50,903 bases of DNA from Saprospiraceae bacterium (GCA_046314415.1 JBKBWT010000001.1:1160-52062); one strand, 5' to 3'. Shown: positions 27,711 through 48,000, counted from the first letter of the stretch. Translations and numbers: made by a program. The notes: a model not told the origin generated them from the letters alone.

Positions 27711-27862
27711 ATTGTATGTTTACAAACTGCAATAAACTTTGAAAAATATTTTTCTCTCCTTTTTACCTGATAATCAGTTTATTACAAGTTTTTATTTATC
27801 AAAGTTTGTCTTTTTGAATAATTTTATTGTAGTAAATAGATACTAATTTCGTACTAATAAGT

Positions 27863-27870
27863 TACTTTTG
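27863..27870 (+). promoter_or_regulatory. candidate -7 box TACTTTTG (TAnnTTTG) upstream of the integrase gene
   Basis: Motif match 14 nt upstream of the integrase ATG, which implies a very short leader. Confidence 0.25.
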
Positions 27871-27883
27871 TATTCAGATACAA

Positions 27884-29194
27884 ATGCAAAAAAAAAATAG
27901 TACGATGCCAATACACCGAGGAACGCCTAAAGTAAGATTTAACCTTCAACCGGCTAAGGCTGGAGCCACTCAATACATTATCCTGTTTTTCCATTATCCG
28001 TATCGAGGGGAAACCGTCCGTTTTCGCTTTTCGACAGGTTATCGGGTGGATCCGAAGCATTGGTCAAAAGATACACAGCGCGTAAAGTTTACCAGGGCGT
28101 TACCAGAATGCCAGGAAATAAACAACCGGCTGAACGAACTGGAAAACCACACTATTGCAATTTGGGAGGAAAACAAAAAGAATCCTATTCACCCGGAAGA
28201 TTTCCGGCAGGAGCTTATCTATAAAATGGGCTGGTTATTCCGACCGGAAGAAACCAAACAAACCCCTACCCTTTTCCAGTTTATCGAAGTATTCATTCAG
28301 CAAGAGCAAGCCAAAGCCAACGCAGAGCGGGGAACCTGGAAAAAATACCTTACGACCTTCAACCACTTAAAAGCATTCGCCAAAGACACCGGGAAGCCAG
28401 TAGATTACCAAGACATTAATTGGCAATTTCGCCACGCCTTTTCAGAATGGTGTTTCGCAGCGCCGCGCAAACACTCCGCCAACACAGTAAATAAAAGCCT
28501 GGACACTATCCGCAAATTTATGCGGGAAGCACTCAAAGCTGGCTACCACAGCAACAGCATTTTTGAGCAAAAAGGATTTTCGATAAAGCGGGTAAAGGTC
28601 AGGAATAAAGTGAGGTTAGATCGGAACGAACTGCAAACCCTTTTGGAGCTTGATTTTTCACACACGCCGCGCCTGGAGCGCGTACGCGATCTTTTCATCG
28701 TAGGCGCTTATTCTGGACAGCGGTATAGTGATTGGAATCAGATCAACCGGGAAAGCGTGTTTGTGAATGAAAAAGGCAAAGAAATGGTGAAAGTTATGAC
28801 CACCAAAACGCGCAAACAGGTAATTATTCCGGTGCTGCCTGAGCTTAAAAAAGTGCTGGAAAAATACGAGTACCAACTCCCTGAATTGGCAATCCAAAAC
28901 TTTAACACCTGGCTGAAAGAAGTCTTTGAAATTGCCTTTGCCGATGCTAAGTTTTTGCGGATTTACAGCGAAGGCGGCAACACCAAAAGCGAAATTATAG
29001 AAAAATGGAAGAAAGCATCTTCCCACGCTGCCCGGCGCTCGTTTGTCTCTAATTTCTTGTTATTAGGCATTCCAGCAAAGTTAATTATGCAGATCACCGG
29101 ACACGCCACAGAAAAGCAGCTATACGAGTACGCAGATATTGAGCCGGAAGAAATTGCAGAGAAGTTCCTCAATGAAGTAGAGGCGAGAAAGTAA
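27884..29194 (+). CDS. int: site-specific tyrosine recombinase (phage integrase family, Bacteroidota type with N-terminal arm-binding domain)
   Basis: 436-aa ORF. The catalytic signature is present: GQRYSD (Arg), SHAARRSF (H-x-x-R) and TGHATEKQLYEYADI (His...Tyr). Confidence 0.92.
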   Translation: MQKKNSTMPIHRGTPKVRFNLQPAKAGATQYIILFFHYPYRGETVRFRFSTGYRVDPKHWSKDTQRVKFTRALPECQEINNRLNELENHTIAIWEENKKNPIHPEDFRQELIYKMGWLFRPEETKQTPTLFQFIEVFIQQEQAKANAERGTWKKYLTTFNHLKAFAKDTGKPVDYQDINWQFRHAFSEWCFAAPRKHSANTVNKSLDTIRKFMREALKAGYHSNSIFEQKGFSIKRVKVRNKVRLDRNELQTLLELDFSHTPRLERVRDLFIVGAYSGQRYSDWNQINRESVFVNEKGKEMVKVMTTKTRKQVIIPVLPELKKVLEKYEYQLPELAIQNFNTWLKEVFEIAFADAKFLRIYSEGGNTKSEIIEKWKKASSHAARRSFVSNFLLLGIPAKLIMQITGHATEKQLYEYADIEPEEIAEKFLNEVEARK

Positions 29195-29339
29195 ATAATT
29201 TGCTTACACTTTAAACATAAAATAATTACACTGTACGATGACTTTAACCGACTTGTAACGATGACGTAAAAAACCGGCGCTGACACTCCGCCAAGACTGA
29301 ACAGCGCCGGAATTTTTAAAGCTAAAAATTTTTACAAAG

Positions 29340-30821
29340 ATGCGTATTTCCAAGCAATTGCCCAAACGGGGCGAGTTTTGGGATAGGTACGCCGGTTTAG
29401 TACCGACGTTGAACAAACTATCCTACTTAACGCAGCTCATTAGCTTCTTATCTGAGCTGTCCGTTTTCTACCTGCTTATTAAGCCAAAAGTGCAAGAGGT
29501 TGCACCCGATCACGCGCACGGCATAGCCATTGCCGGGGCGCTAGTTGTGGCGCTCACTGTTGAAATTGGCGTAAGAACCTTTTTCCCCTACACAGTAAAG
29601 ACGGTTTTGTATCGGCGTTGGTCCGGGCTGGATTTGCCAATGTCGCTGTTTATTTGGGCTTTCACCCTGGGTTTATTTGGCGTTTCGCTATTCACCAGCT
29701 TTCAAGGCAGCCACGACGTCGTTTATGATGCAATGACCACCGGAAAGAGCCGGGATCGTATCGAGCAAACGCTCACTGGTGAAACGGAATCCATTTTAAA
29801 GCGATTTGCGGCGGACAGCCTCCAGACGGCGCAAAGCTACGACGGGCAAATAATCGCTTTGCGTGAAGCAGAGAACGCAGCCGTGACCGCAAAACGGGAA
29901 CAACTGCGGAGCATCGAAAAACGCGAAGCTGCAACCGGGCAAAGCTACCTTTCGCAAAAGTCAAAGTTGCGGGAAGCGATTGCCGCTATTACTGCGGAGA
30001 ATGCTGCTAAAATTGCCGATCTGCAAAGCAAGAAAGCCGATGCCCTTTCTACCCTACTTGCCAAACGCGAAACCAAGACCGGCGAAGCTAAAGACCTGGC
30101 TTCAAATGGTGTTGCACATCTGGAGCAAAAAGGCACAAAATACGGTGGTTGGGTAGCATGGTTCACCGTCATTTGCCACGCATTTTTAGCTATTGCAATC
30201 ACAATGAATGAGATCGTCAAAAAGGGAAGCGACATTCAGGAAAAGCCAATCTTATCAACCTTCCATTTTGACCCGTCCGTTGTCGCTGAATGGTGGGGCG
30301 TACTTTCCAATAAGTACCAGGTGTGGGCGCGTACCAAAATACGCACCTGGGCAGAGAAAACGCCGGAGCCGCCAAAGCCTGGAGCATTACCGGTGCTTTA
30401 CGAGCATGAGCCACAGCAACCGCGGGTTGTGATTGGTGGGTTTATGCCTAATGGCTCCATTACTAATGCAGCAAGCAATTCAAGCGCTAATGCAGGAGGT
30501 ACTAATGCAACCATTAGTAATGCAAGCCCATTTGTCAGCAATTGCCAACATTGTGGCAATGGTTTTGAGACTTTCGACAAGTCGGTTATTACCTGCGATG
30601 AATGCCTGGGGAAAGCAGCGAATGAGGCGACAAACGGTAATACGCCTAATGCAACCATTAGCATGGGGCAAAAACAATGCGAATTGCCTTCTTGCGGCGC
30701 TGCCTTTACGCCAAAAGTGAATTGGCAAAAATACTGTTGTCAAACGCACCAAATGCAACACCACGCTGAAAAGCACGGCAAACCCTTTGACCCTGCTAAG
30801 TTTCACAATAAAAAGCCATAA
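29340..30821 (+). CDS. hypothetical membrane protein with a long coiled coil and C-terminal Cys-rich (zinc-ribbon-like) region
   Basis: 493-aa ORF with about 4 TM segments (aa ~27-48, 61-83, 100-121, 270-289). An Ala/Glu/Lys-rich helical region spans aa ~140-260. The Cys-rich motifs are CQHC...CDEC (aa 402-422) and CELPSC...CCQTHQMQHH (aa 447-475). Confidence 0.6.
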   Translation: MRISKQLPKRGEFWDRYAGLVPTLNKLSYLTQLISFLSELSVFYLLIKPKVQEVAPDHAHGIAIAGALVVALTVEIGVRTFFPYTVKTVLYRRWSGLDLPMSLFIWAFTLGLFGVSLFTSFQGSHDVVYDAMTTGKSRDRIEQTLTGETESILKRFAADSLQTAQSYDGQIIALREAENAAVTAKREQLRSIEKREAATGQSYLSQKSKLREAIAAITAENAAKIADLQSKKADALSTLLAKRETKTGEAKDLASNGVAHLEQKGTKYGGWVAWFTVICHAFLAIAITMNEIVKKGSDIQEKPILSTFHFDPSVVAEWWGVLSNKYQVWARTKIRTWAEKTPEPPKPGALPVLYEHEPQQPRVVIGGFMPNGSITNAASNSSANAGGTNATISNASPFVSNCQHCGNGFETFDKSVITCDECLGKAANEATNGNTPNATISMGQKQCELPSCGAAFTPKVNWQKYCCQTHQMQHHAEKHGKPFDPAKFHNKKP

Positions 30822-30824
30822 GCA

Positions 30825-31067
30825 ATGAAATGGATAATCAATCTATGCCACGATACAAAAGCAAGTTCCGAAGGTGAAAAATATTATATCAATGCTTATA
30901 AAAATGGTAAAGTGGTAAATGCAACCACTCATTTATTTAGCAAGGAAATAAAAGTTAAACCCGTTGTCGGCAATCAAATTCACCACGGAAATGCTATTTA
31001 CCAGATCAAAAAGGTTGAGCAAATTACCGCATTTGGAGACGATAACCATTATATGATTTTTGTATAA
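30825..31067 (+). CDS. hypothetical protein (80 aa)
   Basis: ATG-initiated ORF 3 nt after the preceding stop. I recognise no family. Confidence 0.5.
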   Translation: MKWIINLCHDTKASSEGEKYYINAYKNGKVVNATTHLFSKEIKVKPVVGNQIHHGNAIYQIKKVEQITAFGDDNHYMIFV

Positions 31068-31084
31068 TTCGTAAGTAAATAACC

Positions 31085-31369
31085 ATGAATAATAAACCAA
31101 TAGAAAGCCCTGAAAACAAAGCTTTAGCCATTTTGGACGATGCACAAATCAAAGACCCGGCAGACGCATTAGAAATGCTCGAATGTCTGGGTAATGTATT
31201 CGCCTTTTACTTTGGGCATTTCCCAAGGATAAGAGGCGTAGAATTCGATGAGGAATGGACGGATAAAGTTTTTTATGTACATGAAAAATTGGCAGAGCTT
31301 GTAAAGAAAGGGCATCTTTTACTAAATGAAGTTTCAAAAAAGACTGATTGTCAAACCATTAAAAAGTAA
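31085..31369 (+). CDS. hypothetical protein (94 aa), paralog of the next ORF
   Basis: It shares the motif L..L.n.F.FY..H.P.I.G ... Y.V...L..L with 31375..31641. Confidence 0.55.
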   Translation: MNNKPIESPENKALAILDDAQIKDPADALEMLECLGNVFAFYFGHFPRIRGVEFDEEWTDKVFYVHEKLAELVKKGHLLLNEVSKKTDCQTIKK

Positions 31370-31374
31370 ATAAC

Positions 31375-31641
31375 ATGTCAGCAATATTATATGAATATAA
31401 AGCACCACAGCAAGATTTTAACCCGGAGGAAATCCTCGAACGGGCTGGATTACGAGAGCTTGATTTGAATATCAAGTCTTTACAAATTCTCAATGAAATG
31501 TTTGTGTTCTACCTGGCACACTATCCTCAAATATTTGGCTTGCCTTGTGATAGCCGTTTTCACGATATATACGGGGTGTGCGACCGGCTTTCTGGCTTGA
31601 TCGTCAATGCTCAACTCTATTTTGAAAAACAAGAAGAATGA
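31375..31641 (+). CDS. hypothetical protein (88 aa), paralog of the previous ORF
   Basis: Compare LQILNEMFVFYLAHYPQIFG here with LECLGNVFAFYFGHFPRIRG in the preceding ORF. Confidence 0.55.
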   Translation: MSAILYEYKAPQQDFNPEEILERAGLRELDLNIKSLQILNEMFVFYLAHYPQIFGLPCDSRFHDIYGVCDRLSGLIVNAQLYFEKQEE

Positions 31642-32011
31642 CCTGGAGTAAGTGTCCACCCGTTTTTAAGCGTGTGGACACACTAACTAATGTAATACGA
31701 TAAAAAAAATTGATTTTTTTTTGTAACAGTCAGTAGGATATAATTTATTGACAATTAAGTTAAGTATAATCATAAAATTGAAATTAAACACCTTTTTTTA
31801 TCGTACTACATTGGTTTTCAAAGCGTGGGGTATTGCAAAATTATCACTGTTTTGTTACTTTTGTTGCAGCTACTAGGGATAACAAGTCAAACCCACGCTA
31901 TCAAAACACATCATTGAACGCTTTCTAAAAAACTACGGAAAAGATAAGACCTGTCAATTTTAATGCTACGCATTAAGCGTACCAATATTTTATCATTTAT
32001 TCAATAATAGT

Positions 32012-32302
32012 TTGAAAATGAAGCAATTAACCATTCTTGCAAAAAAGATTGAGGCACTTACTTTAGAGGTGCAAGCTATTCGGTACTGCATGGAATCCCC
32101 TTCCGTTCCTGGTAATTTTAAAGACAGTGATCTTTTAACAAAACAAGAGGTTGCAGCGCTTTTAAGTGTTTCGTTATCAAGCATTAACGTGTACATGAAA
32201 AACGGAACATTAAAGCCATTGCATTTTGGTACGGGTAAGCGGAAAATTGTCCGTTTTCGCCGGTCGGATGTGCAATTACTCATTTCACAAAAAGCGGCGT
32301 AA
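32012..32302 (+). CDS. excisionase-type helix-turn-helix DNA-binding protein (likely start ATG at 32018)
   Basis: LLTKQEVAALLSVSLSSINVYMKNGTLKPLHFG...IVRFRRSDVQLLI is the MerR/excisionase-like HTH_17 pattern. The track start is TTG. Confidence 0.7.
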   Translation: MKMKQLTILAKKIEALTLEVQAIRYCMESPSVPGNFKDSDLLTKQEVAALLSVSLSSINVYMKNGTLKPLHFGTGKRKIVRFRRSDVQLLISQKAA

Positions 32303-32622
32303 TGGAAAACCCATTTGAAATACTTTCACAGAAATTAGATCAGGTGTTAACGGAGCTTTCAGAGCTTAAAACGAAGCACCAGGAGCCACCGGCAGCGCCT
32401 ACACCGGCGCCACCGGCATTAGAGCCTGAAAAGCGATTTTACAAGGTAAAAGAAGCTGCTTTTATTTTAAGTTGTTCAGCCGGTACGATTCGCGGGTACA
32501 TCAGAACGGGGAAATTGAAAGCTATAAAGAATGGGCGAGGCATAAACGGAACAGTACGAATAGAAAACACTGAAATTGAGCGATTTATCCAATCTATGAA
32601 ACAAAAAAAGGTTGACCTATGA
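32302..32622 (+). CDS. excisionase-type helix-turn-helix DNA-binding protein
   Basis: FYKVKEAAFILSCSAGTIRGYIRTGKLKAIKNG...VRIENTEIERFI matches the same HTH pattern. The start overlaps the previous stop (TAATG). Confidence 0.7.
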   Translation: MENPFEILSQKLDQVLTELSELKTKHQEPPAAPTPAPPALEPEKRFYKVKEAAFILSCSAGTIRGYIRTGKLKAIKNGRGINGTVRIENTEIERFIQSMKQKKVDL

Positions 32623-33968
32623 CAGCCAAACCTTCTAAACGAAATTTTACGAATAATACGGGCAAAGATAACGGGTTATTGCCTGAAAATCAAGCGGAAA
32701 CGAAAAAAGTTGTCGTTATTCCTGCTGGTGCAGATGCAAACGAGCCAACCAGACAGGAACAAGCGGATTCAGAACAAAGCGAAGGCAAGTTAGACCCACG
32801 TTTAAAAAACCTGGAGGACAAACTCCGCAAAAAGTGGACTTTCCGGTATAATTCTGTTACTTGCTCAACGGAAATTCAAAATGGCAAAAAATGGACTCGC
32901 TTAGATGATTTTACCCTGCATTCAATTGTAAGAGAATTAAGAAAAGAAGGCGTTGCACTTGCCAGTAAAACCCGCGTTGCTGAATTGCTAGAAAGTGATT
33001 TTTGCAAGAAGGTAAATCCAATTGAACAATATTTTGAGAACCTCCCAAAACCTGGCAACCGTGACTACATTTTAGACCTGGCAAAAACCGTAATGCCAAC
33101 AGATGATTATACTATTGAAACCTTTTACAAATTTTTCAAAAAATGGTTGGTTGGCGCTGTTGCCAACGTCTTTATAAAAGATCGATGTGCAAACCAGGTT
33201 TGTTTTATTCTTTCCGGGAAACAAGGCGCTTTTAAATCTACCTGGATTCGCAATTTATGCCCTCCAGCGCTGGAGCCGTACTACATTGAAGGCGGTTTAG
33301 ACCCCGATGATAAAGACAGCATTGCCGCCACTACATCAAATTTCATATTCAATTTAGATGACTACTTCGCGGGAATCACTTCGCGTAAGATCAACGAATT
33401 CAAAGGGTTATTAACAAAAAATACGGTCAAGATACGCCGACCGTATGCCCGTTATTCCGAGGAAATGCCCAAAATCTGTTCGTTCATTGCGTCATCCAAC
33501 GAACAAACATTCCTCCATGATCCGACCGGCAACCGGCGCTTTTTGCCTTTTGAGGTGCAAGCGATTGACATTGAAGCCGCTAAGAAGATAGATATTAATT
33601 CAGTTTGGGCGAAGGCTTACCAGGAATATAAAGCAGGCTTTGAATATTGGCTGACTAAAGATGACCAAACAGAATTGGAAAGACATAATACCAGGTTTGA
33701 AGTTCAAAGTTCTGAGTATGAGTTATTAGTGCAATGCTTTAGAAAGCCGGAAACCGGGGAAAAAGGTATAATGCTTACCACGCAAAACGTCATTGATAGA
33801 ATAAAGGAAAACCTTGGTACTTCTATGACATTTTCCCAAAAGAAGATAGGAGAGGCGCTGCGAAAAGCAGGCTTCGAGCGGAAATCTTGCAGAGTTGGAG
33901 GAAAAGCGCCGGTTTATGCCTGGGAAGTAATGACAGTTGAAATGCCAGACATAGAAGGCGAAAAATAA
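32619..33968 (+). CDS. VirE-family (virulence-associated protein E-like) P-loop NTPase, replication helicase/primase-associated
   Basis: 449-aa ORF. It has a Walker-A-like LSGKQGAFKSTW, then FNLDDY...EFKGLLT...IRRPYARY...ICSFIASSNEQTFLHDPTGNRRFLPFEV, which matches the VirE (PF05272) pattern. It has an ATGA start/stop overlap with the upstream ORF. Confidence 0.85.
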   Translation: MTAKPSKRNFTNNTGKDNGLLPENQAETKKVVVIPAGADANEPTRQEQADSEQSEGKLDPRLKNLEDKLRKKWTFRYNSVTCSTEIQNGKKWTRLDDFTLHSIVRELRKEGVALASKTRVAELLESDFCKKVNPIEQYFENLPKPGNRDYILDLAKTVMPTDDYTIETFYKFFKKWLVGAVANVFIKDRCANQVCFILSGKQGAFKSTWIRNLCPPALEPYYIEGGLDPDDKDSIAATTSNFIFNLDDYFAGITSRKINEFKGLLTKNTVKIRRPYARYSEEMPKICSFIASSNEQTFLHDPTGNRRFLPFEVQAIDIEAAKKIDINSVWAKAYQEYKAGFEYWLTKDDQTELERHNTRFEVQSSEYELLVQCFRKPETGEKGIMLTTQNVIDRIKENLGTSMTFSQKKIGEALRKAGFERKSCRVGGKAPVYAWEVMTVEMPDIEGEK

Positions 33969-33986
33969 CAGTCTTTTGCTCATTTT

Positions 33987-34194
33987 ACTTACTACATCTT
34001 ACTACAAGTAAGTAAACAATTGAAATACAGATACTTAAATGTAGTAAGATAGATTTTGGAAGTTACTACAAAGTTACTACAACTTACTACAAAGTGAATT
34101 GTAGTAAGTTTTACTGAAAGCAAAAGAATATCTTACTACACTGTAAGTAATTAATTATCAATAAAATACAGTGGTTTGTAGTAACGTAGTAAGA
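33987..34194. repeat. iteron-like array: 10 copies of the core TTACTACA (6 forward, 4 inverted) within 208 bp
   Basis: Forward copies are at 33987, 33997, 34061, 34072, 34082 and 34131. Inverted copies (TGTAGTAA / GTAGTAAG) are at 34040, 34100, 34177 and 34185. The array lies between the VirE-like and primase-like genes. Confidence 0.85.
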
Positions 34195-34235
34195 TAAAAC
34201 ACCAAAGTTCAAAACTTTTTAAAATTTACTTAATC

Positions 34236-35282
34236 ATGGAATCAGTTTTGAATGTGAATGTAAGTTGTTTTGCCAACTACACCAGCGCAGACAACCCGCG
34301 CCCGGTGAACCTTTTGCGCTGGCTGACTTCCGATAAATACCGCGCCGAAGTAGAAGCGATCCGCCAAACCAGCGACAAAGCCGACCGTGACCGATTAAAG
34401 GCAAAATTACCAGCTATCACACCGAGCGGACTATTTACACGCCGGGAAGCTGGCTGTTTGGTGCAACATTCCGGTTTACTCCAGTTTGATATTGACTTCA
34501 AAGAAAACCAGCACATTGCCAATTTTCCAGACCTCAAAAAGCAGCTGTGCAATATCAAAAACGTGGCTTATTGCGGGTTATCCGTTTCCGGCGCTGGCTA
34601 CTGGGGTTTGATACCCATATCGGAGCCACAGCGCCATAAAGAACACTTTGAAGCCTTGCGCCAATACTTTGCCGACCTTGGGGTAATGCTTGACGATAAG
34701 CCCAAAAACGTGGCTTCTTTGCGTGGCTATTCCTACGACCCGGAAGGATATTTCAACCACAGCGCCACGCCTTACCGGCAGTATATCCAAGCGGAGCCGG
34801 AACGATACGAGCGCCGATCAGCGCCACAGCCGCGCCCACAGTCCACAGAAGCGGAAAAGGTAGAGGCGATCCTTTCACAGATCAATGCAGGACGCATAGA
34901 TATTACCGGCAGCTATGGCGATTGGTTTGCAATCGGGTGCGCCCTGGCTAATACCTTTGGCGAAGCTGGCAGGGATTACTTTCACCAGCTGAGCCAATAT
35001 CACAGCGAGTATAGCTATAAGAACACAGACCGGCAGTTTGACCACTGCAAGCGAGGCAAGGGAGGCAAAAGCATTGCCACACTATACGAGATTGCAGAAC
35101 GGTACGGCGTACTTTACCGCAATGGATTGAGCGCCGCTCCAGCGCCACCACAGCGCCACCAGGCAGCAAAAAGAAACGCATTGCCACCAGGTCACACGGT
35201 AAAGCAGTTCACTAGCGTGCTGACTGGTGTATCCTTCGACCTGGAGTTAGACGCGCACGGCATACCGGCAATGTGGCGGTGA
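34236..35282 (+). CDS. primase-like protein (BT4734-like/VirE_N N-terminal domain plus PriCT-type C-terminal domain)
   Basis: 348-aa ORF. The N-terminal part KAKLPAITPSGLFTRREAGCLVQHSGLLQFDIDF matches the BT4734-like pattern. GSYGDWFAIGCALANTFGEAGRDYFHQLSQYHSEY resembles the primase C-terminal (PriCT) motif. Confidence 0.7.
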   Translation: MESVLNVNVSCFANYTSADNPRPVNLLRWLTSDKYRAEVEAIRQTSDKADRDRLKAKLPAITPSGLFTRREAGCLVQHSGLLQFDIDFKENQHIANFPDLKKQLCNIKNVAYCGLSVSGAGYWGLIPISEPQRHKEHFEALRQYFADLGVMLDDKPKNVASLRGYSYDPEGYFNHSATPYRQYIQAEPERYERRSAPQPRPQSTEAEKVEAILSQINAGRIDITGSYGDWFAIGCALANTFGEAGRDYFHQLSQYHSEYSYKNTDRQFDHCKRGKGGKSIATLYEIAERYGVLYRNGLSAAPAPPQRHQAAKRNALPPGHTVKQFTSVLTGVSFDLELDAHGIPAMWR

Positions 35283-35593
35283 AAACTTGCAATTATGCGT
35301 GCATATTTCCCCAAAATTTGCCCAAACTTAATTAAGCAAAAGCAAATCCGCGCCCTAGGGTATATGCGTGTAAGAAGGGTAATATTTTGAAAATCAAGCA
35401 AATAAAAGCCTTAAAACAAATACTTTATATGTCGAGGTATGTTACAAACTTTTTGTGTGAATTAAAATTTTATTTTACAGTATTTATTATTGTTATTTTT
35501 AATTTAAAATGTACCTAAAAAAAGGTAGTAATTCACTGTCCTTTCAAAAAATGACCCTTTTTTGCACCTTGCGACAGCTAAAAAATACTAGCA

Positions 35594-36286
35594 ATGAAGA
35601 AATTTTTTAATCTTCTGAAATCCAAGAAAATGAAGAATTTAGAACCAATTTTGTTAGATGAACGTACCGATCGTTCAGAATTGCAGTTGCTTCAGCTGAA
35701 GCAGCGCCGCGAAGAAAGTTATTCCCTCCTGGAAGCATTGCGCGTTGCCCTTGAAAAACTTTTAGGCGAAGCGCCCGACTTACACCAGATTGAGCAATTT
35801 ATCAGAATTTCAGACGAAAAAAGCGCCACGATTGAAGCTCTTAAAACTTATATGAAGGTCAAGCAAATAGACCTTGATATAGATTTAAATAGTGGATTTC
35901 AGAGCGTTCGCCTTCCTGGGGAGGTAAAGACGTTGGTTGACGCCTGGCAAGCCCTCAATTGGCACTCCCCGGAAGATTTTTCTCCGTATTGGTCGCAAGA
36001 AGATTTTGCCTTTCAACCGCTGCCAATCAACCCGGAAGAAGAAGCGAAAATCAGAGAGCGAAACCGGGTCTATGGTACGCAGGAACTCAATGAAATGTAC
36101 CAACATTTACGCATCAATTGCAACCTGATAAATTTTTATCGCAGGGAGAATCCTACATTACCATTTGATGCCTTTCCAAAAGTTTGGCAACCGTTTTTGA
36201 ACCGGGATGACAAAGGCAATTTTACGGTCAAGGAATCAGAATTTTTGACGCCTGGAGAGACTTACCAGGCGTTTGACGAAAGATAG
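35594..36286 (+). CDS. hypothetical protein (230 aa)
   Basis: ATG-initiated ORF with protein-like composition. I recognise no family. Confidence 0.55.
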   Translation: MKKFFNLLKSKKMKNLEPILLDERTDRSELQLLQLKQRREESYSLLEALRVALEKLLGEAPDLHQIEQFIRISDEKSATIEALKTYMKVKQIDLDIDLNSGFQSVRLPGEVKTLVDAWQALNWHSPEDFSPYWSQEDFAFQPLPINPEEEAKIRERNRVYGTQELNEMYQHLRINCNLINFYRRENPTLPFDAFPKVWQPFLNRDDKGNFTVKESEFLTPGETYQAFDER

Positions 36287-36377
36287 CATCTTGTTTTTTT
36301 ATCATATGTTGGTTAAAATCGTTTTTACTGCCGTCCTTAATTGGACGGCATTTTTCAAATCAAAATGAATAATTATC

Positions 36378-36818
36378 ATGCAGAATAATGAAGAAATGAA
36401 GGCGAGAATTGAGGCGCTGGAAGCAATTGTCGTGAAACAAAATGAGGAAAATAAAAGGCTTCGAGAGCAGTTAGACGCGGTACAATCTACCATGTCAAAT
36501 GAGGAATTTTTACTCAAAAGTCAGGCAGCAAAAGCGGCGGGTGAAATGCCTACATTCAAAGTTGAGGGCAAACTTTACTGTTTTACCGCTCCAGCTTTCA
36601 AACTGAATGGAATCAAGTACACAGCCTCCGAAGCGGTCAAGGATGTGCGATTGTTAAAGGAAATGATTGAAAAAGGGTACGGTGTCATTAAAGAAGTAGG
36701 GGAGCCGGAAAGCAAGAAAGATTACTCCGCTATTCCAATGATAAGCCGGGAACAAACATTCTTTTCCACACCTAGCCATTCCAGCGATAGCGGTATCCAA
36801 ATCACAGTAGTTGAGTAA
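36378..36818 (+). CDS. hypothetical protein (146 aa) with N-terminal coiled coil
   Basis: ATG start, with a heptad-like segment MKARIEALEAIVVKQNEENKRLREQL. Confidence 0.5.
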   Translation: MQNNEEMKARIEALEAIVVKQNEENKRLREQLDAVQSTMSNEEFLLKSQAAKAAGEMPTFKVEGKLYCFTAPAFKLNGIKYTASEAVKDVRLLKEMIEKGYGVIKEVGEPESKKDYSAIPMISREQTFFSTPSHSSDSGIQITVVE

Positions 36819-36846
36819 AATTTTCCAATTTCAAAAAAGCATTCTT

Positions 36847-37152
36847 ATGAATAAACAACAAGAAACTGACTGGAAACTCCGCTTTCATTACGGGGTAATT
36901 GATGAAGTCAAAGCCTTCTTTGGTTTGTCGGAAGACCTCACACCGGCGGAAGTTCATCACTTTATGATTGAACAGAATAAAGCCAAAGGAACAATGGTTC
37001 CCAGGGCATCCGCACCGGCAGCGCCGGTTACAAAAGTGACGACACCAGCGCCTAAAGTCGAGCCAAAAAAAGAGGAAATACCAGCAACACAAGCCTGGAG
37101 AATGTCAGCCTTTAACCAGCGACTTGAAAAGAAGTTTCGAGGGCAGAAGTAA
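36847..37152 (+). CDS. hypothetical protein (101 aa from ATG 36847; the track ORF starts at TTG 36811)
   Basis: The ORF has a Pro/Ala/Lys-rich linker. The ATG at 36847 avoids overlap with the preceding gene. Confidence 0.45.
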   Translation: MNKQQETDWKLRFHYGVIDEVKAFFGLSEDLTPAEVHHFMIEQNKAKGTMVPRASAPAAPVTKVTTPAPKVEPKKEEIPATQAWRMSAFNQRLEKKFRGQK

Positions 37153-37205
37153 ACATTCAGCAAAGGTTTTTTACATCGGTTACGTTTTTTTTATAAAGAA
37201 GATTG

Positions 37206-37233
37206 AGGCAGCCCAACGGGTTGCCTTTTTTTT
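37206..37233 (+). terminator. rho-independent terminator closing the island gene string
   Basis: GGCAGCCC aac GGGTTGCC forms an 8-bp stem and is followed by 8 Ts. Confidence 0.75.
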
Positions 37234-37273
37234 ATTTCTTTCTGCTAAAGATACTAACCAAAATACTAACGAG

Positions 37274-37320
37274 CGGAAAAGAAAAAGCCTAAAACATTGA
37301 CAAACAATGAATTAGGCTTT
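37274..37320 (-). terminator. terminator of the tRNA-Met gene (island-borne)
   Basis: On the minus strand, AAAGCCTAA ... TTAGGCTTT forms a 9-bp stem followed by TTCTTTTCC, directly downstream of the tRNA 3' end. Confidence 0.55.
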
Positions 37321-37328
37321 GTTTTTCG

Positions 37329-37401
<73 letters not shown>

Positions 37402-37613
37402 ATGTTAAACCACTCTCTCCAACAGGGTATTTTGCTTTTTAGTTCAAAAGAGTCCCCTGTTTTTTAAATGGTTTGCAAAGATAAGTACTTTTCTTAACTT
37501 TGTCAAGTCCTTCCTTAATTAAATATCGCCTAAGCTACCTTTTCGGGTGAAAATACCTGAAATTGCTAGATTTTTATTATCTTCCAACTCAAAGTTTACA
37601 CCTAAATTCCCTT

Positions 37614-40007
37614 ATGCGCTTCTATCTACTTAGCATTTTACTGTGCTTAGTCCATGGGCTGCACGCACAGGTAGTTTGTTCGCCAGAGCAAGCGGAGCTG
37701 GTTATTGAGATTATGACCGACCGCTACGGGTACGAAACTTCCTGGGAATTGACCGGGAGTTCCGGTACACGTTATAAATTTTTGCCGCCATTTAGTTATA
37801 AAAATCAGCGCTTACACCGCGATACGCTCTGCCTGCCAGCAAATGACTGCTTCGCTTTTACAATTTATGATGTATTTGGTGATGGCATTGATGCACCGGG
37901 TTATTATTTGGTGCGCTTAAATGGTGATACGCTCCAGCGAGGCGGCATTTTTTATAAAGAAGAATCTTTATATTTAAATTGCCCATCAGGAATGGTTTGT
38001 GCAGTAGCAACGTCCATCACGCCCGGCACTTACACCGCAGCTTTCGATGATACCTGGTACGAGTTTATCCCTGATACGTCAGGAATTTATCGGATCTCAA
38101 CCCGAAATTTAAATACCTGCGACACTAAAATCTGGGTATATACTACTTGTGATGGCATTACCATTGCCGAGGACAATCAAAGTACGGTTTTTTATAATGA
38201 CAATGCGACCGCGCAAACGCCACAGGCAGAAGTCCGTGGCTTTTTTACGGCGGGCAAAACGTATCGGATTCGCATGGGCGATCATAATAATGCCTGCCGC
38301 GATAGTATTCGCTGGAATTTGACTTTTGAAGGTCCGCTGCGCGGCTGCACCAATCCTAATGCTTGTAACTACAATCCATTGGCAACAATTAACGATGGCT
38401 CCTGTTTGCTGCCGGGCGACCGCCGTTGCCCGAAAGGTCCTGATTTGCTGATTCGTCAGGATACGTTGCTACAATCGATTCGCCTGGATACCATTCATTC
38501 CGAAGACCTCTGCCTGATTCAGGAAGGCTGTGTACGCGGCTATGGGGTACGTAATGTTTTACGCTTTACAACACAAATACATAATATTGGCGAACGCGAT
38601 TATTATATTGGTAAACCAAATTATAATAACAATCAATTTACCTGGAATAATTGTCATAATCACTTTCATTATGATAATTATGCCGAATATTTAGTCATCG
38701 ACGAATCTGGTAAAAAAATGCCCATTGGCTTCAAAAGTGGCTTATGTATTACTGATTTTGGTTGCGAGCCTGGCTATAATCCAAAGTACAGTTGTGATAA
38801 TATGGGCATCAGCGCACATTGCTTTGATGCGTACTGGTCGGCGCTCAAGTGCCAATGGATTGACATAACTGATTTACCTGATGGGAGATACACATTAGTA
38901 GTACGCATCAATTGGAAAAATAGTCCCGATGCGTTAGGGCAAGTGGAAAAAGATTTGGATAATAATATCGCCCAGGTCTGTATTCGCTTAGACCGGAGTT
39001 CAGGCACCTTGAAATGCACCGTCGAGCAACCCTGTGATCCTTACCTCGATTGCGCGGGTATTCCTTTCGGCGAAACACAGCCCGATTGCCTGGGCATTTG
39101 CGGGGGTAAACGTTTATCGGGCGACGCGAATGAAAATGGACTACAGGAAATCGCCGACGCCGAGCAATACATCACGCTGCTGCTCGGTAATGACATCGAA
39201 CCCAATGCTTGTAATGATTTGAATGGTGATAGCGTCATCACGGTACAAGATGCAGTGCTGCTGGCTAGTTGCCTCAATTTTGGCGCGGCGCATCCACACG
39301 AAGGTGCCGGAATACACAATCACTGTCAGTTTCCCGTTGCCAATTTATTTAATACAAAAGATACTGTTACACTTGGCATTATGGGCGTAAACTGGGAGGA
39401 GCGTTACGTAGATATTGGGATTTTAAATCATACAACCAATATTACAGCCTATCAGTTTCGCCTTACGGGTGGCAGCATTAGCCACGTAGAAAGTCTGGTC
39501 GATGCTGCCACTTATCCGGTTACGCTGCGCACAAATATGAGCGAAGGTATGGTGATTGGCTTGTCCTATCGGGATTCGGTCATTCACAAATCAGAATTAA
39601 TGCAGCCGCTTTGTAGAATACATTTTTTTAATTTAAATCTATACACTATTGTAATTCAGGATATTATCTCAATTGTAAATAACAATTATGAACGCGTAGC
39701 CAATGCAATTATAAATGGCATTGCCGTAAAATCCACCACAACTCACATTAACAATATAAACAATATTATACAAGTACAAGTACGTCCAAATCCAATACAT
39801 GACGAAGCGCAGTTTGCTTTTTATAGCATTCAAAATCAGTATTTTACATTAGAAATTGTTGACTTAAACGGAAAGATCGTTCGACAATATGTCAACCTGC
39901 GTCCACCTGGTATCCGCATCAAGCGGGATGATCTGCCCGCCGGTATTTATTTTTATAAACTCATTGGGGAACGCAGCTATACTGCCGGTAAGTTTATTAT
40001 TCAATGA
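37614..40007 (+). CDS. secreted multidomain protein: lysyl-oxidase-like catalytic domain + dockerin + T9SS type A C-terminal sorting domain
   Basis: The track ORF starts at TTG 37563. The ATG at 37614 gives the signal peptide MRFYLLSILLCLVHGLHAQ. The LOX motifs CHNHFHY, KSGLCITD and CQWIDITD are present. Dockerin loops are DANENGLQEIAD and DLNGDSVITVQD. The C-terminus is ...RPNPIHDEAQFAF...LEIVDLNGKIV...LPAGIYFYKLIGE...GKFIIQ (Por secretion tail type). Confidence 0.85.
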   Translation: MRFYLLSILLCLVHGLHAQVVCSPEQAELVIEIMTDRYGYETSWELTGSSGTRYKFLPPFSYKNQRLHRDTLCLPANDCFAFTIYDVFGDGIDAPGYYLVRLNGDTLQRGGIFYKEESLYLNCPSGMVCAVATSITPGTYTAAFDDTWYEFIPDTSGIYRISTRNLNTCDTKIWVYTTCDGITIAEDNQSTVFYNDNATAQTPQAEVRGFFTAGKTYRIRMGDHNNACRDSIRWNLTFEGPLRGCTNPNACNYNPLATINDGSCLLPGDRRCPKGPDLLIRQDTLLQSIRLDTIHSEDLCLIQEGCVRGYGVRNVLRFTTQIHNIGERDYYIGKPNYNNNQFTWNNCHNHFHYDNYAEYLVIDESGKKMPIGFKSGLCITDFGCEPGYNPKYSCDNMGISAHCFDAYWSALKCQWIDITDLPDGRYTLVVRINWKNSPDALGQVEKDLDNNIAQVCIRLDRSSGTLKCTVEQPCDPYLDCAGIPFGETQPDCLGICGGKRLSGDANENGLQEIADAEQYITLLLGNDIEPNACNDLNGDSVITVQDAVLLASCLNFGAAHPHEGAGIHNHCQFPVANLFNTKDTVTLGIMGVNWEERYVDIGILNHTTNITAYQFRLTGGSISHVESLVDAATYPVTLRTNMSEGMVIGLSYRDSVIHKSELMQPLCRIHFFNLNLYTIVIQDIISIVNNNYERVANAIINGIAVKSTTTHINNINNIIQVQVRPNPIHDEAQFAFYSIQNQYFTLEIVDLNGKIVRQYVNLRPPGIRIKRDDLPAGIYFYKLIGERSYTAGKFIIQ

Positions 40008-41541: not shown

Positions 41542-42189
41542 TTACTTATTCACTCTATAATCCTCTAAAATAGCTTCTACTTTTTGAATAATGGATTCCG
41601 AAATTCGATTCTCAGCACCACCGGCTCGAATGGCTCCAATAATTCTATTTTCCTTGTCCGTTATCAAGGTGAAGGGATAACCCCACATCAGATGAAATTG
41701 ATTTTCAGTAACATCGGTACCATTGGGAAGAATGGTAAAATGAAAGGGATGTTCTTTTAAAAACTCCTGCAACTGCTCCGGTTGATCTCTGACAATCGCC
41801 AGAAAATTAATGTCCGAACGATTATATTTTTGCACTAACGTATTTAAATCAGGAATTTCCTCCACACAAGGCGCGCAATGAATAAACCAGAAGTTAATAA
41901 TATTTATTTTTCCTTTAATATTATTGGTGTTAATCGTATTGCCATTCATATCCGTCAATTCAAATTCGGGGAGCTTAGCGCCGAGTAAACACGCCGGTTT
42001 CACTATATGAGGTCTTCCTTTTTGACCAGTCTCTACTACTTCAAACTCTAATCCCAAATCCTCCGAATTTTTCAGACAATTGGCAACCCGCACGGCATAG
42101 GTTTCTTCGGAGACTTTGCAAGCAGGGGTAAGTAATAAAGAATGAATAATTAAAATAAAGAAAATTATTTTTCTAGATAAGTAATTCAT
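41542..42189 (-). CDS. TlpA/redoxin-family thiol:disulfide oxidoreductase, lipoprotein-type signal
   Basis: 215-aa ORF with a signal peptide ending LLTPAC. It has a thioredoxin-fold motif NFWFIHCAPCVEEIP (CxxC). Confidence 0.8.
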   Translation of the reverse strand: MNYLSRKIIFFILIIHSLLLTPACKVSEETYAVRVANCLKNSEDLGLEFEVVETGQKGRPHIVKPACLLGAKLPEFELTDMNGNTINTNNIKGKINIINFWFIHCAPCVEEIPDLNTLVQKYNRSDINFLAIVRDQPEQLQEFLKEHPFHFTILPNGTDVTENQFHLMWGYPFTLITDKENRIIGAIRAGGAENRISESIIQKVEAILEDYRVNK

Positions 42190-43972: not shown

Positions 43973-44890
43973 TTACTGATTCGCACGCTGGTTTGTTGGA
44001 TTCTTTTTAACTAAATTAAATAACAAACTGATTTCGTGCGAGCCACTATTAAATTTCTGGAAACGCTGGAACGACATATCATAAGAATACAATACATTGA
44101 AATTAGAGATTTTTGCGCCCAGCAAAATGCCCAATGCCCCCAAGGAGCGGTACGATACACCGGTAATTAGCTGATCTTCCAGGAAAGTAGCCTTCAGGTT
44201 GATGTCCACCTGCGCCGGGGCATCTTTTACGCGCCGGGCCATAATGGAAGGTTCCAGCGAAAAATTCAAATCATAAATATCAAAGCGATGTGCCAGAAAC
44301 AAGGTATAATGTTGTAAGGCAGATTCATCGGTGCTTTCTACTACATCATCCAGGCGGCTTTGAATCAAATTGGCAAAGGACAAACCGAAGCGGGTATTGT
44401 CGCGAATACTACCAAACACACCGATAGAAGCATCAAATTCATTGACACCATTCATGTAATCGTTAATCACATTATCCCCCTCATCCACTCTGCCAAAATC
44501 AGCATTATTATCGAGTCTTAATTGTTGATAGAATGCGGAGAAACCAGCCGACATTTTCACGTATTCACTCAAATTAAAGCGGAAAGCCCAGTTGAGTTGC
44601 CCTTTGAGGCGAGTAAGTTGCGCAGCGGTTTCAGCGGAAACACCTACCCCTATACCAAAATTCTTACCGACCGGGCTATTGAGCATGGCACTAACCGTCT
44701 GTGGAGCATCCGCAAAACCAGTCCACTGCGCGCGCCCGTTCATTTGTAACTGAAAAGTGTTGTTAAAGCCAGCGGCTGCCGGGTTGATGAGAATTGGAGT
44801 AATATGATAATGCGTGAAAATGGCTTCATCTTGTGCCCGTACCACTTGCCAGACAGCGAAAAAAGATATGAGTAGAAGTAATTTTTTCAT
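43973..44890 (-). CDS. type IX secretion system membrane protein, PorP/SprF family
   Basis: 305-aa ORF with a signal peptide, then QDEAIFTHYHITPILINPAAAGF..., the characteristic PorP/SprF N-terminus, and beta-barrel-like composition. It lies immediately downstream of a type B CTD gene. Confidence 0.88.
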   Translation of the reverse strand: MKKLLLLISFFAVWQVVRAQDEAIFTHYHITPILINPAAAGFNNTFQLQMNGRAQWTGFADAPQTVSAMLNSPVGKNFGIGVGVSAETAAQLTRLKGQLNWAFRFNLSEYVKMSAGFSAFYQQLRLDNNADFGRVDEGDNVINDYMNGVNEFDASIGVFGSIRDNTRFGLSFANLIQSRLDDVVESTDESALQHYTLFLAHRFDIYDLNFSLEPSIMARRVKDAPAQVDINLKATFLEDQLITGVSYRSLGALGILLGAKISNFNVLYSYDMSFQRFQKFNSGSHEISLLFNLVKKNPTNQRANQ

Positions 44891-45010: not shown

Positions 45011-48000
45011 TTATTTTCCGCGCAGAATCGTGAGCGAACCTTTTTGCTGTACCAGGTTGCCATCCTTATTGGTGTATTCCAATACAAAGTAATAAGGTCC
45101 ATCCGGCAGTGGGTCGCCACTCTGTGTGGTGCCTTCCCAACCAGATTGATAGTTATCTGCCTGGAATACCAGTTGTCCCCAGCGGTTGTAAATTTCCAGA
45201 TGGTTTTCGGCACTTTCATTACAAGTCACTCTAAAGTCTTCATTAGCGCCGTCTCCTTCCGGTGTAATAATTACTTTATCAACCAAACAGTCAGGATTAC
45301 CCGATTCACCAACAATGCCAGTGGCACTTGGCGCAGTACATCCCCGACTATCGGTCACGGCTACCATATAAGTACCTGCACATAATCCATCAATCATAGC
45401 ATCGCTGCTCATCGGCGCATTCCAGCGGAAAGTATAAGGAGTTGAACCACCTTCCACTACCGCAAGTGCCGAACCATTACAGCCATCTGTAGCCGGTTGT
45501 GTTTCTACTTTAACTTGAATTGGTTTAGGCTCAGCTAATGTAAATGAAGCGGTCACTTTACAATTATTGCCATCCGTAGCTACCACCTGGTAGGTACCAG
45601 GTCCACGATTCAACAAGAATGGACCAGCCTCCTGAGGCGTTGTATTCCATACAAAACTATAAGGTTTGCCAACTGCTCCACCAACTGCGTTTAGTACAAT
45701 TCTACCGTCGGTTCTACCTGCACAGGAAATCTGTTGAATATTGGCAACCACCTGAATCGAATCCGGCGGCACCACATTGATTTGCTTGGTAACCGTACAA
45801 CCAATTGCATCGGTCACCGCAACTTGATAAGCTCCGGCACCTACGCCATTCAATACAGGTGTAGTACCTAATACCGTAGTGCCACGACGCCATTGATAGG
45901 AGTAGTTGCCACTACCACTTTTGCCAGTCGCCTCGATGATACCATCGGTTGAAGTCGGGCAACTAATATCCGAACCATTGTAATCAGAAATCACTTCGAC
46001 ATCTGCATTCAAATTTGAATTGGAGCCAATGGTAAATTGTTTGGTCAAGGTATTACCCGACTGCTCCGTAACGCTCACCGTATAAACACCAGGTGCTACA
46101 TTTTTCAAGGTATCAGCAGTAGAAATTACCGTACCGGCAGCATTCCGCCAGGAATAACCATAAGGTTTGGTGCCTCCGGTAATACTCAATGCAATCACGC
46201 CGGTAGTATCCTGCGGACAAGCGGTGGCAACCGCAGCGCCATTGGCACGGAAAGTTGTCACCGGAATAGCAGGGAAGGTTTGCCGACAGCCATTCGCATC
46301 CTGTACGGTTGCAATAAAATTACCTTCGCAAAGATTGATAATCTGCGTGTTATTGCCGGTATTCGGTGTATTCCATTGTACACTGTAGGGTTGCTTACCT
46401 CCGGAGAAGGTAACACTAATGCTACCCGTACAACCTGACTCTTCGGTATCATGTTTTACCACACTGGCGACTTGAATAGGTGCCGGCTGTGGTACATCAA
46501 CACTGTCGCGTAATATGGTACCGAGATCATCGGTGATGGTATAAACCAACTTGCCACCGCTCAGATTATTCTTGTTTACAGTACCATTGTTATTTGACAA
46601 TGTCGTATTATCACTAAATGCAATGTTATAAGGAGCACGCCCGCCGTTAATCTGGAAGGACAGCGTACCGTCATTGTTGCCTGCACAAGTTACCCCTGTG
46701 ATCTGGCGATTGGCAGTTGAAAGCGGAATATTTTGCTCTGTCACATTGTAACAGCCACTATTCGTACAGCCGCGACTGTCAGTTACGGTTACACAGTATT
46801 CGTCCTTCCGCAAATTCGCCAAAGTATCCTTGGTAGAATTATCTTCCCATCTGATGGTATAAGGACCTGTACCCCCACTGATTGCCAGCACGATTCGACC
46901 ATTTGAACCACCCACACTTGCCTGCGTAATCTGCGCATTGAGTACAATCGGTGGATATTTGGTAATTTCAAAGCTGGAAGTATTGGTTCCTCCTTGACTA
47001 TCTGTAATCGTGACGGTATAAGTACCGGCTGCTACGTTATTTAAGTTTTGCGTGGTTGCACCATTGCTCCAACGGAAAGAATAAGGCGATGCTCCTCCGC
47101 TAACAGTCAGTATCACTGAACCAGTGGTCGTGCCATCACAAATACGATTTGCCTGTCCGGTTACGTTCAACGGTGCAGTAATACTTGCGCAGCGTGTAGC
47201 CGTACAATTCTGTGCATCCGTCACCGTCACACAATACTGGCCCGGCGTAGTCAAACCACTGAGGTCTTTTTGCGTAGAAGTATAATTATTGGGACCCGCC
47301 CAAGCGTAAGTATAAGTACCGGTGCCACCCGTTACCGTTATTGCAATAGCGCCATTGGTACCTTGTTGATTGATATTGGTAGGAACCATATTGCTAACCT
47401 GCACAGTTGATTGCGAAGCAACGTTCAAATTAGTGAGTGCAAACGTACAGCTCCGCGCATCCGTGATGGTAACAGCGTAAGTACCAACTGCCAGATTACT
47501 CTGTGAAGCAACATTGTCGGGCAACGAACCACTCCAGTTATACTGATATGGGCTCGTACCTCCAGATACATTTAAAGTAATGCCACCTGAATTAGCCGCA
47601 GCGCCGCAGGCGATATTGGTAATGTTGGAAGTTGCATTCAACGCGGCAGCTGGTTGGTTGACGTTATAAGTGCCGGTAACTGTCAAAGAAGTCGTTGCAT
47701 CTGTCACCGTTACTGAATACGTACCCGCCGGAATATTGGTCAAATCCTGCGTGGTCGCATTATTACTCCATCGATAGGTAAAATTACCAGAACCACCCTG
47801 TGGGGTAATATTGATAGCGCCCGTCGATTGCCCAAAACAGTTCACCCCTGTGATAGCAGGCACTGCCAGGGTCGGAGCAGCAGGTCCACTGCTACCAATG
47901 GTAACAGTTCCATTTTTAGTAGAGAAAGGCTCCGCTTCCTCATCTATATTATCCACCCCCATTGGTGCGGTAGGCGTTCCGGTAAAACTCAATGCAGCGG

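Follow-up and report, generated by a model that had tools for sequence, protein, structure and literature searches.

The gene considered here lies in a 50,903-nt window of DNA (the whole stretch that was analysed) from a Saprospiraceae bacterium (GCA_046314415.1, JBKBWT010000001.1:1160-52062) and encodes a 797-residue protein with a lysyl oxidase (LOX) catalytic domain and a sorting domain for a type IX secretion system (T9SS). Identification of the LOX domain is confirmed, far beyond chance, and every sequence- and fold-level test of membership places the protein in the lysyl oxidase family. From its domain content we infer, with a probability of roughly 0.55, that the protein is an amine oxidase, dependent on copper and on lysine tyrosylquinone (LTQ), that is exported by the T9SS and oxidizes protein-bound lysines at the cell surface. 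The gene is a long open reading frame (ORF) on the + strand (37563..40007). The ATG at 37614 is taken as the conserved start because the orthologue alignments begin there, and the upstream TTG at 37563 is disfavoured. The coding sequence and the features of the catalytic domain are as follows.

37614..40007, + strand: coding sequence of the 797-residue LOX-family T9SS cargo protein, stop codon included (ORF, Pfam, orthologue alignments)
38406..39038, + strand: lysyl oxidase catalytic domain, residues 265-475 (PF01186, LOXL2 5ze3, Foldseek)
38655..38669, + strand: predicted copper-binding site His348-x-His350-x-His352, aligned to the metal ligands H626/H628/H630 of LOXL2; invariant in 79 orthologues
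38733..38735, + strand: Lys374, predicted LTQ precursor, aligned to LOXL2 K653; invariant in the 79 orthologues
38832..38834, + strand: Tyr407, predicted LTQ precursor and fourth metal ligand of the precursor state, aligned to LOXL2 Y689; invariant
38946..38966, + strand: calcium-site loop E445-K-D447-L-D-N450-N451, in which E445/D447/N450/N451 align to LOXL2 E722/D724/N727/N728

A preliminary description of this DNA had recognized by eye a LOX catalytic core at residues ~290-480 with an intact copper site and intact LTQ residues, and all of this holds. The Pfam profile Lysyl_oxidase (PF01186), whose use that description had recommended, matches residues 309-462 with E=9.1e-35 and 120.6 bits against a gathering cut-off of 20.4. 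A phmmer search of all PDB chains gives human LOXL2 (5ze3) as the one strong match (E=1.4e-23, residues 300-458). The nucleotide positions given for the CHNHFH motif (38652-38669) and for the codons of K374 (38733) and Y407 (38832) are exact. A model of the protein built with AlphaFold2 (AF2) on the 79-orthologue alignment has a mean predicted local distance difference test score (pLDDT) of 86.6, and its best fold match in the PDB is 5ze3_A (Foldseek E=1.4e-12, prob 1.00, 28% identity, 243 columns). The global TM-score to 5ze3 is low because both proteins are multi-domain. Superposition on LOXL2 had been proposed as a further check, and at the level of fold the model agrees; the same description also stated that a model in which the LTQ lysine and tyrosine are not juxtaposed would speak against the assignment. 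This second point is invalid, since 5ze3 is a zinc-bound LOXL2 precursor in which the two residues lie 16.6 A apart (PMC5899467), and a similar separation in a model would refute nothing.

The roles of individual residues are taken from the LOXL2 structure paper (PMC5899467). Nine cysteines of the window protein (C300, C306, C347, C378, C384, C394, C403, C413, and C456) pair with cysteines that form disulfides in LOXL2 (C573, C579, C625, C657, C663, C673, C685, C695, and C732, in that order), and a tenth, C474, was matched to LOXL2 C746 by position, by eye, beyond the HMMER alignment. Five disulfides are thereby predicted for the domain, as in LOXL2. A PDL motif at residues 276-278 (D277-L278) was likewise equated by eye with the calcium-site residues D549-L550 of LOXL2, outside the HMMER alignment. 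Invariance was scored on 79 full-length orthologues of 43-74% identity. All ten LOX-domain cysteines are invariant among them, as are the calcium-site residues E445, N450, N451, and D277; D447 and L278 are the only catalytic, cysteine, or calcium-site residues that vary. The domain also has a conserved loop specific to the family, NWxNxPDALG (residues 433-442), that is absent in LOXL2.

Constraint is strongest in the short linkers and in the LOX domain, where 38% of columns reach at least 90% conservation, and weakest in the first N-terminal sandwich, the cohesin-like domain, and the sorting domain. The place of the LOX domain among the most conserved parts implies selection on catalysis, and the catalytic, disulfide, and calcium-site residues are under strong purifying selection. 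The same evidence bears on the idea of a pseudo-enzyme, in which a LOX-like domain without catalysis serves for binding or structure in a surface adhesin. The build of the protein, with its beta-sandwiches, dockerin, and C-terminal sorting domain, does resemble that of a modular T9SS adhesin, and activity in this clade is so far a prediction. However, all copper-binding and LTQ residues are invariant across orthologues that are otherwise so divergent, and no other highly conserved block is as long as the catalytic domain, a pattern that is not expected of a pseudo-enzyme. We regard a dead domain as very unlikely.

Prokaryotic LOX proteins had been described beforehand as few and barely characterized, and the first of these statements does not stand. 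More than 120 full-length orthologues (~800 residues) with the same domain order and 44-74% identity are found in Saprospiraceae, Lewinellaceae, and Phaeodactylibacter, and several of them are named 'lysyl oxidase family protein' by NCBI. Such Bacteroidetes entries, from Phaeodactylibacter luteus and from metagenome-assembled genomes (MAGs) of Saprospiraceae, belong to the same orthologous family at 44-57% full-length identity. A scan of GTDB, with one genome per species, listed 600 candidate stretches of which 540 encode a relative, so that there are at least 540 relatives among GTDB species genomes. The best 80 of these loci are from Saprospiraceae, Lewinellaceae, Phaeodactylibacter xiamenensis, Chitinophagales, Flavobacteriales, and Cryomorphaceae. 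The LOX domain alone retrieves 2,325 clusters (50% identity) at E<=1e-3 and 274 at E<=1e-30. Bacterial LOX was reported as early as 2015, when Grau-Bove and coworkers found it in Bacteroidetes, Actinobacteria, Proteobacteria, Gemmatimonadetes, Deinococcus-Thermus, and Archaea, mostly as single-domain proteins (PMC4448552). As for characterization, the archaeal LOX of Haloterrigena (HTU-LOX) has been expressed and, after refolding with copper, is an active amine oxidase that is copper dependent and sensitive to beta-aminopropionitrile (BAPN), which is a precedent for a non-animal LOX domain forming such an enzyme (PMC6452851). The family of the window protein is thus large and already annotated in databases, it is biochemically unstudied, and the window protein is an ordinary member of it.

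Among longer LOX relatives, all five that were scanned end in Por_Secre_tail (the T9SS C-terminal domain), and their extra domains include PKD, GEVED, and galactose-binding-like domains. Three contigs with a Bacteroidota-type T9SS LOX gene (L041, L073, and L083) come from MAGs assigned to Caulobacterales, Bifidobacteriaceae, and Comamonadaceae; the assignments are probably metagenome binning errors and not real occurrences. In the searched literature on LOX with T9SS, Saprospiraceae, and Flavobacteria, no description was found of a T9SS-linked multi-domain Bacteroidota LOX clade or of its abundance. A bioRxiv paper on cysteine-rich repeats mentions LOX in passing and has no bearing on the window protein.

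LOX is best known from animals, and the domain could be thought to come from eukaryotic contaminant DNA or to have been acquired horizontally from an animal in very recent times. Motifs such as CQWIDITD, which are identical in human LOX, would fit such an origin. The context and distribution of the gene effectively refute it. The domain is inside one uninterrupted ORF among bacterial-type modules with a T9SS sorting domain at the end; the gene has a GC content of 0.43, equal to that of its flanks, and sits between a bacterial tRNA-Met and a thiolase gene in a synteny that is conserved in relatives. Orthologues occur in hundreds of Bacteroidota genomes, the identity to LOXL2 is only 28%, and 274 clusters match at E<=1e-30, far better than LOXL2. 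The 9.6-kb integrative island upstream ends at the tRNA and excludes the LOX gene. The many orthologues, the GTDB spread, the GC content, and the thiolase synteny identify the gene as ancient and bacterial: it is an old orthologue, inherited vertically and widespread among Saprospiraceae, Lewinellaceae, and Flavobacteriales, and was not recently imported from animals.

The modules that flank the catalytic domain are, from the N terminus to the C terminus, as follows.

37614..37667, + strand: predicted Sec signal peptide, residues 1-18, MRFYLLSILLCLVHGLHA followed by Q (by inspection: MR n-region, 11-residue hydrophobic core, LHA/Q cleavage site)
37671..37979, + strand: N-terminal beta-sandwich 1 (N1), residues 20-122, with a TDxYGYETSW...GDG motif (AF2 models, Foldseek)
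37980..38342, + strand: N-terminal beta-sandwich 2 (N2), residues 123-243, a PPC / HA70-like jelly roll (Foldseek)
38343..38405, + strand: cysteine-rich linker GCTNPNACNYNPLATINDGSC, residues 244-264, the best-conserved segment outside the LOX domain
39039..39107, + strand: second cysteine-rich linker PYLDCAGIPFGETQPDCLGICGG, residues 476-498, with invariant D479, C480, G482, G486, D491, C492, C496, and G498
39108..39290, + strand: dockerin-like module, residues 499-559, with two calcium-loop/helix repeats (GDANENG...D515 and D535-L-N-G-D539...D546)
39291..39335, + strand: His-rich linker H560-P-H562...H568-N-H570-C571, residues 560-574 (HxH-x5-HxHC), between the dockerin and the cohesin-like domain
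39336..39749, + strand: cohesin-like beta-sandwich, residues 575-712 (Foldseek)
39771..40004, + strand: type A T9SS C-terminal sorting domain, residues 720-797 (PF18962, TIGR04183, Foldseek)

The two ends of the protein point to export. The model has a helix at residues 2-16, within the predicted signal peptide, and at least 90% of orthologues keep the Gln19 that follows the predicted cleavage site. The C-terminal domain is a bona fide T9SS type A sorting domain, as the preliminary description had proposed: TIGR04183 (E=1.2e-9, 37.9 bits against a cut-off of 23) and PF18962 (E=1.8e-7, 31.7 bits against 27, residues 725-797) both score above their cut-offs, and Foldseek matches it to the T9SS C-terminal domain structures 8qb1 (TMt 0.76) and 8glk_D (TMt 0.85). 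T9SS-related genes within the window comprise a PorP/SprF gene and two SprB-like adhesin genes with CHU_C (type B) signals, which implies that the host probably has a T9SS; the core genes sprA, porV, and gldKLMN are located outside the window.

The protein shares with T9SS type A cargo enzymes (F. johnsoniae ChiA/NucA-type and Tannerella mirolase) a Sec signal, the combination of catalytic and accessory domains, and a C-terminal Ig-like sorting domain of ~75 residues, 8qb1 being the sorting domain of mirolase and 8glk_D that of NucA in the T9SS complex. Unlike these enzymes, whose catalytic modules are hydrolases, its catalytic module is an oxidase. No description of a T9SS cargo protein with a LOX domain was found in the literature.

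At the N terminus the preliminary description had recognized a single PPC-like beta domain; the likeness to PPC stands at the level of fold, but there are two sandwiches with PPC/collagen-binding folds, not one. A separate model of residues 20-266 has a pLDDT of 86.6. The region matches the tandem ColG collagen-binding domain (5iku; Foldseek E=7.3e-6, prob 1.00, 228 columns) and a collagenase PPC domain (5sv5; TMt 0.65, root-mean-square deviation 3.4 A), with further Foldseek matches to botulinum HA70 and CUB domains. A search of the PDB with the family profile is weak for this part and gives only HA70/HA3 at E 0.13-0.18, and Pfam has no PPC or collagen-binding domain match (PF04151) in the sandwiches at E<=1. 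N1 and N2 were considered as duplicates of one another, which was rejected as hhalign shows no relation between them. In two orthologues of ~1,035 residues (P0007 and P0008) the whole unit of N1, N2, and linker is duplicated in tandem. In the linker itself 52% of columns are at least 90% conserved; its motif, GCT(D/N)PxxCNYNPLATIDDGSC (38343..38405), is the best-conserved linker of the family.

The dockerin named in the preliminary description is supported at the family level, as judged from profile matches. Repeat 1 (D504-x-N506-x-N508...D515, with a model helix at 513-524) and repeat 2 (D535-x-N537-x-D539...D546, helix at 544-559) have D504, D515, D535, and D546 invariant in the 79 orthologues. 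Six of 20 orthologues match a Pfam dockerin at E<=0.01 (best 3.9e-7), and the family profile finds the CelS dockerins 1daq/2mte in the PDB at E~0.008, with weaker matches (E 0.09-1.5) to several more dockerins. The adjoining His-rich linker has three invariant residues (H568, H570, and C571) and two, H560 and H562, with at least 90% conservation, though the stretch is disordered in the model (pLDDT <50 at residues 563-569). The linker may be a metal-binding, perhaps copper-handling, site. In contrast, three of the five longer relatives mentioned above carry 3-15 MopE-type putative copper-binding repeats instead of this His-rich motif.

The sandwich at residues 575-712 was missed in the preliminary description. 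The model matches the cohesin+FN3 structure 2w1n (Foldseek E=5.5e-6, prob 1.00), although beta-sandwich folds are common and the aligned region is not reported. By sequence, cohesin (PF00963) has no Pfam match in residues 575-712 and none appears in the PDB profile search; an hmmsearch with the profile of this region against the ORFs of the window found no cohesin; and hhalign against the cohesins of a neighbouring gene gives P=0.03 with an alignment in register. A cohesin identity by sequence was dropped after these Pfam, hmmsearch, hhalign, and PDB profile comparisons, and support at the level of fold remains. Non-cellulosomal cohesin/dockerin proteins such as C. perfringens GH84C (cohesin-FN3, 2w1n) share the dockerin-type double calcium loop, the cohesin-like sandwich, and the association with a secreted enzyme. 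Unlike these proteins, the window protein has the dockerin and the cohesin-like module, the latter assigned by fold only, in one polypeptide.

Taken together, these modules suggest the following course. The signal peptide would direct the protein to the periplasm via Sec, where it would fold and form many disulfides, five of them in the LOX domain. Cu(II) would be bound by H348/H350/H352, and Y407 would be oxidized and cross-linked to K374 to give LTQ autocatalytically. The type A sorting domain would then pass the folded protein to the T9SS, after which it would be retained on the surface or released. Outside the cell the enzyme would oxidize lysines at the epsilon-amino group, with proteins bound by the N-terminal PPC/collagen-binding-type sandwiches as the most likely targets, and yield peptidyl aldehydes (allysine), H2O2, and NH3. 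From the aldehydes, covalent cross-links could arise by spontaneous condensation. As for the dockerin and the cohesin-like module, they would probably anchor the enzyme, either on surface proteins that carry cohesins or on further copies of the enzyme. Protein-bound lysine is favoured as the substrate because the two conserved binding-type sandwiches and the dockerin/cohesin-like pair fit an enzyme that is placed on macromolecules and surface scaffolds. An exported amine or peptidyl-lysine oxidase, as the preliminary description proposed, is the natural inference from the set of domains, and the cross-linking activity that it also proposed is a putative one.

Several points weigh against an oxidase of protein-bound lysines. 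Enzymatic activity, copper binding, and LTQ are all predictions for the window protein and its clade. The PPC/collagen-binding assignment is one of fold, with ~10% identity to the ColG collagen-binding domain; the cohesin-like assignment, also with ~10% sequence identity, is of the same kind; and Dockerin_1 (PF00404) in the window protein falls below the Pfam cut-off (13.9 against 22.9 bits, E=0.063). Type A cargo of Saprospiraceae could be either retained on the surface or released. No universal partner or operon gene was found in the neighbourhoods of four orthologues or on clustering all ORFs in 85 loci. Lastly, the only characterized prokaryotic LOX has a relaxed specificity and oxidizes many small amines (PMC6452851).

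This last point leads to an alternative in which the same chemistry acts on small, soluble primary amines, for example on free lysine, polyamines, amino sugars, or antibiotics that are amines. The enzyme would then supply NH3 for nitrogen nutrition, or its H2O2 and aldehydes would act against microbes or algae, or both, and the accessory domains would do no more than place it on the cell surface. HTU-LOX oxidizes taurine, glycine, cadaverine, histamine, aminoglycosides, and polymyxin, and its authors suggest that it supplies nitrogen from unusual amines (PMC6452851). There is no conserved candidate substrate protein encoded beside the LOX gene, and in 13 loci of one clade a divergently transcribed M14 carboxypeptidase is encoded next to it, an enzyme that releases free C-terminal amino acids. 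However, the M14 synteny is confined to that clade, two conserved binding-type sandwiches with a dockerin/cohesin pair exceed what a small-molecule oxidase needs, and peptidyl lysine is preferred by the LOX enzymes of animals, all of whose active-site residues are present here. Small amines are a possible but less probable class of substrate than protein-bound lysine.

Two known LOX systems are close enough for comparison. LOXL2 and LOX (PF01186; 5ze3) are likewise extracellular and share with the window protein the fold, the His-x-His-x-His motif, the LTQ lysine/tyrosine pair, the calcium-site residues, and, by prediction here, the five disulfides. Unlike LOXL2, to which it is ~28% identical, the window protein has neither SRCR domains nor a propeptide cleaved by BMP-1, and its flanks are PPC-type sandwiches, a dockerin, a cohesin-like domain, and a T9SS sorting domain. 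Its substrate must differ from that of animal LOX because the host has no animal-type collagen/elastin matrix. By its published description HTU-LOX is, like the window protein, a prokaryotic PF01186 protein with a signal peptide. Its architecture is simple, the LOX domain being preceded by a signal peptide and a short N-terminal stretch that is inhibitory. HTU-LOX does not belong to the T9SS cargo proteins, and its native role is cryptic.

The surroundings of the gene include the following features.

37328..37401, - strand: tRNA-Met(CAT), upstream of the LOX gene
41542..42189: AhpC/TSA-redoxin (thioredoxin-fold) protein with a CxxC (CAPC) motif
43973..44890, - strand: PorP/SprF gene, partner of the adhesin at 45011..49735
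45011..49735, - strand: 1,574-residue adhesin with four N-terminal cohesins, eleven SprB repeats, and a CHU_C (type B) T9SS signal
49790..50593, - strand: 267-residue cohesin protein with a type A sorting-domain-like tail, preceding the 1,574-residue adhesin
3806..11029, + strand: second giant SprB-repeat protein, 2,407 residues, with a CHU_C type B T9SS signal
27696..37342: integrative island, ~9.6 kb, directly upstream of the LOX gene
37472..37502, + strand: possible Bacteroidota-type promoter (TTTG, 19-nt spacer, TAACTTTG), found by pattern search 112 nt upstream of the start codon

Downstream of the LOX gene come, in order, the thiolase gene, the thioredoxin-fold protein, the PorP/SprF gene, the cohesin/SprB adhesin, and the cohesin protein. 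The thiolase/PorP/SprB-cohesin block is syntenic only in the 5-7 closest loci. Since this synteny is clade-limited and the neighbours elsewhere are unrelated, the LOX gene is regarded as a stand-alone unit. The redoxin was considered as an SCO1-type copper chaperone and rejected, since its CxxC (CAPC) motif is of the thioredoxin type and the syntenic loci do not conserve the gene. The divergent upstream neighbour in the 13 loci referred to above (L012, L013, L015, L016, L018, L020, L021, L023, L025, L026, L028, L035, and L081) is a T9SS-secreted M14 zinc carboxypeptidase of ~800-900 residues with an InhA-like MAM domain. These loci belong to one Phaeodactylibacter/Lewinellaceae/Saprospiraceae clade and not to the close relatives of the window. 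The pairing of LOX and M14 carboxypeptidase could be functional or could be only clade-level synteny.

In the clade of the window, cohesin-rich SprB-type adhesin genes lie 5-10 kb downstream of LOX. In the window itself the cohesin-rich adhesin locus is 5 kb from the dockerin-bearing LOX gene, a synteny with LOX that is found in the closest five loci only. In a speculative scheme, to which we give little weight, the enzyme would act as a 'covalent glue'. The dockerin would load it onto cohesin-bearing SprB-type gliding adhesins, such as the four-cohesin protein encoded 5 kb downstream, or the enzyme would polymerize with itself via its own cohesin-like domain, and lysines would be oxidized on prey, algal, or sheath proteins that the collagenase-type binding domains have captured. 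If this scheme were true, filamentous Saprospiraceae would have an animal-like oxidative cross-linking of the sheath or matrix or an irreversible means of attachment to hosts, and the system would be a bacterial counterpart of the cross-linking of the metazoan extracellular matrix and perhaps its evolutionary source.

The island upstream has a 15-bp direct repeat, GTAGCGGCGACAGGA, at its edges (27696 and 37328), the latter copy being the 3' end of tRNA-Met. It encodes a tyrosine integrase (27884..29194), a VapE-like protein (32619..33968), a PriCT-2/BT4734-type primase (34236..35282), a 493-residue protein with no Pfam match, and three small orphan ORFs; the GC content falls to 0.34 at 26-28 kb. 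It looks like a satellite-type or mobilizable element. That the LOX gene might be cargo of the island was rejected, as the island stops at the 3' end of tRNA-Met with LOX outside it, and the LOX synteny is kept in relatives that lack the small ORFs of the island next to the gene.

The promoter-like motif lies in the intergenic region between tRNA-Met and LOX and is a positional hint only, as the Bacteroidota pattern occurs 2 times in the window, where chance alone would give 2.6. Scans of the window for sigma-70 and Bacteroidota promoters and for terminators were statistically uninformative. On the opposite strand, ORFs that overlap the LOX gene cluster together in 37 loci, where they form the second-largest cluster and reach 851 residues (L021 3017..5569, - strand). 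In the window this frame is broken into 38774..39019 and 39041..39319 (both - strand; 81 and 92 residues). The cluster was rejected as a gene and is regarded as a shadow ORF, an artefact of the conservation of the LOX sequence.

The notion that prokaryotic LOX is rare is an outdated premise, and the window gene is one more member of an annotated family. The PDB search found no structure of an active, LTQ-containing lysyl oxidase, the sole LOX-family entry found being the zinc-bound LOXL2 precursor. Since the clade is large, diverse, and naturally secreted and keeps all catalytic, disulfide, and calcium-site residues, it offers many candidates for expression, crystallography, studies of LTQ biogenesis, and biocatalytic protein cross-linking. 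It is thus a promising source of tractable LOX enzymes for the unsolved active-site structure. The finding is relevant, too, to the bacterial origin of the enzyme in animals. For the bacteria themselves it raises an ecological question, namely what use abundant environmental Bacteroidota (living in activated sludge and lakes and associated with algae) make of a surface amine oxidase. Candidate roles are the cross-linking of a matrix or sheath, adhesion, the scavenging of nitrogen, and the production of H2O2.

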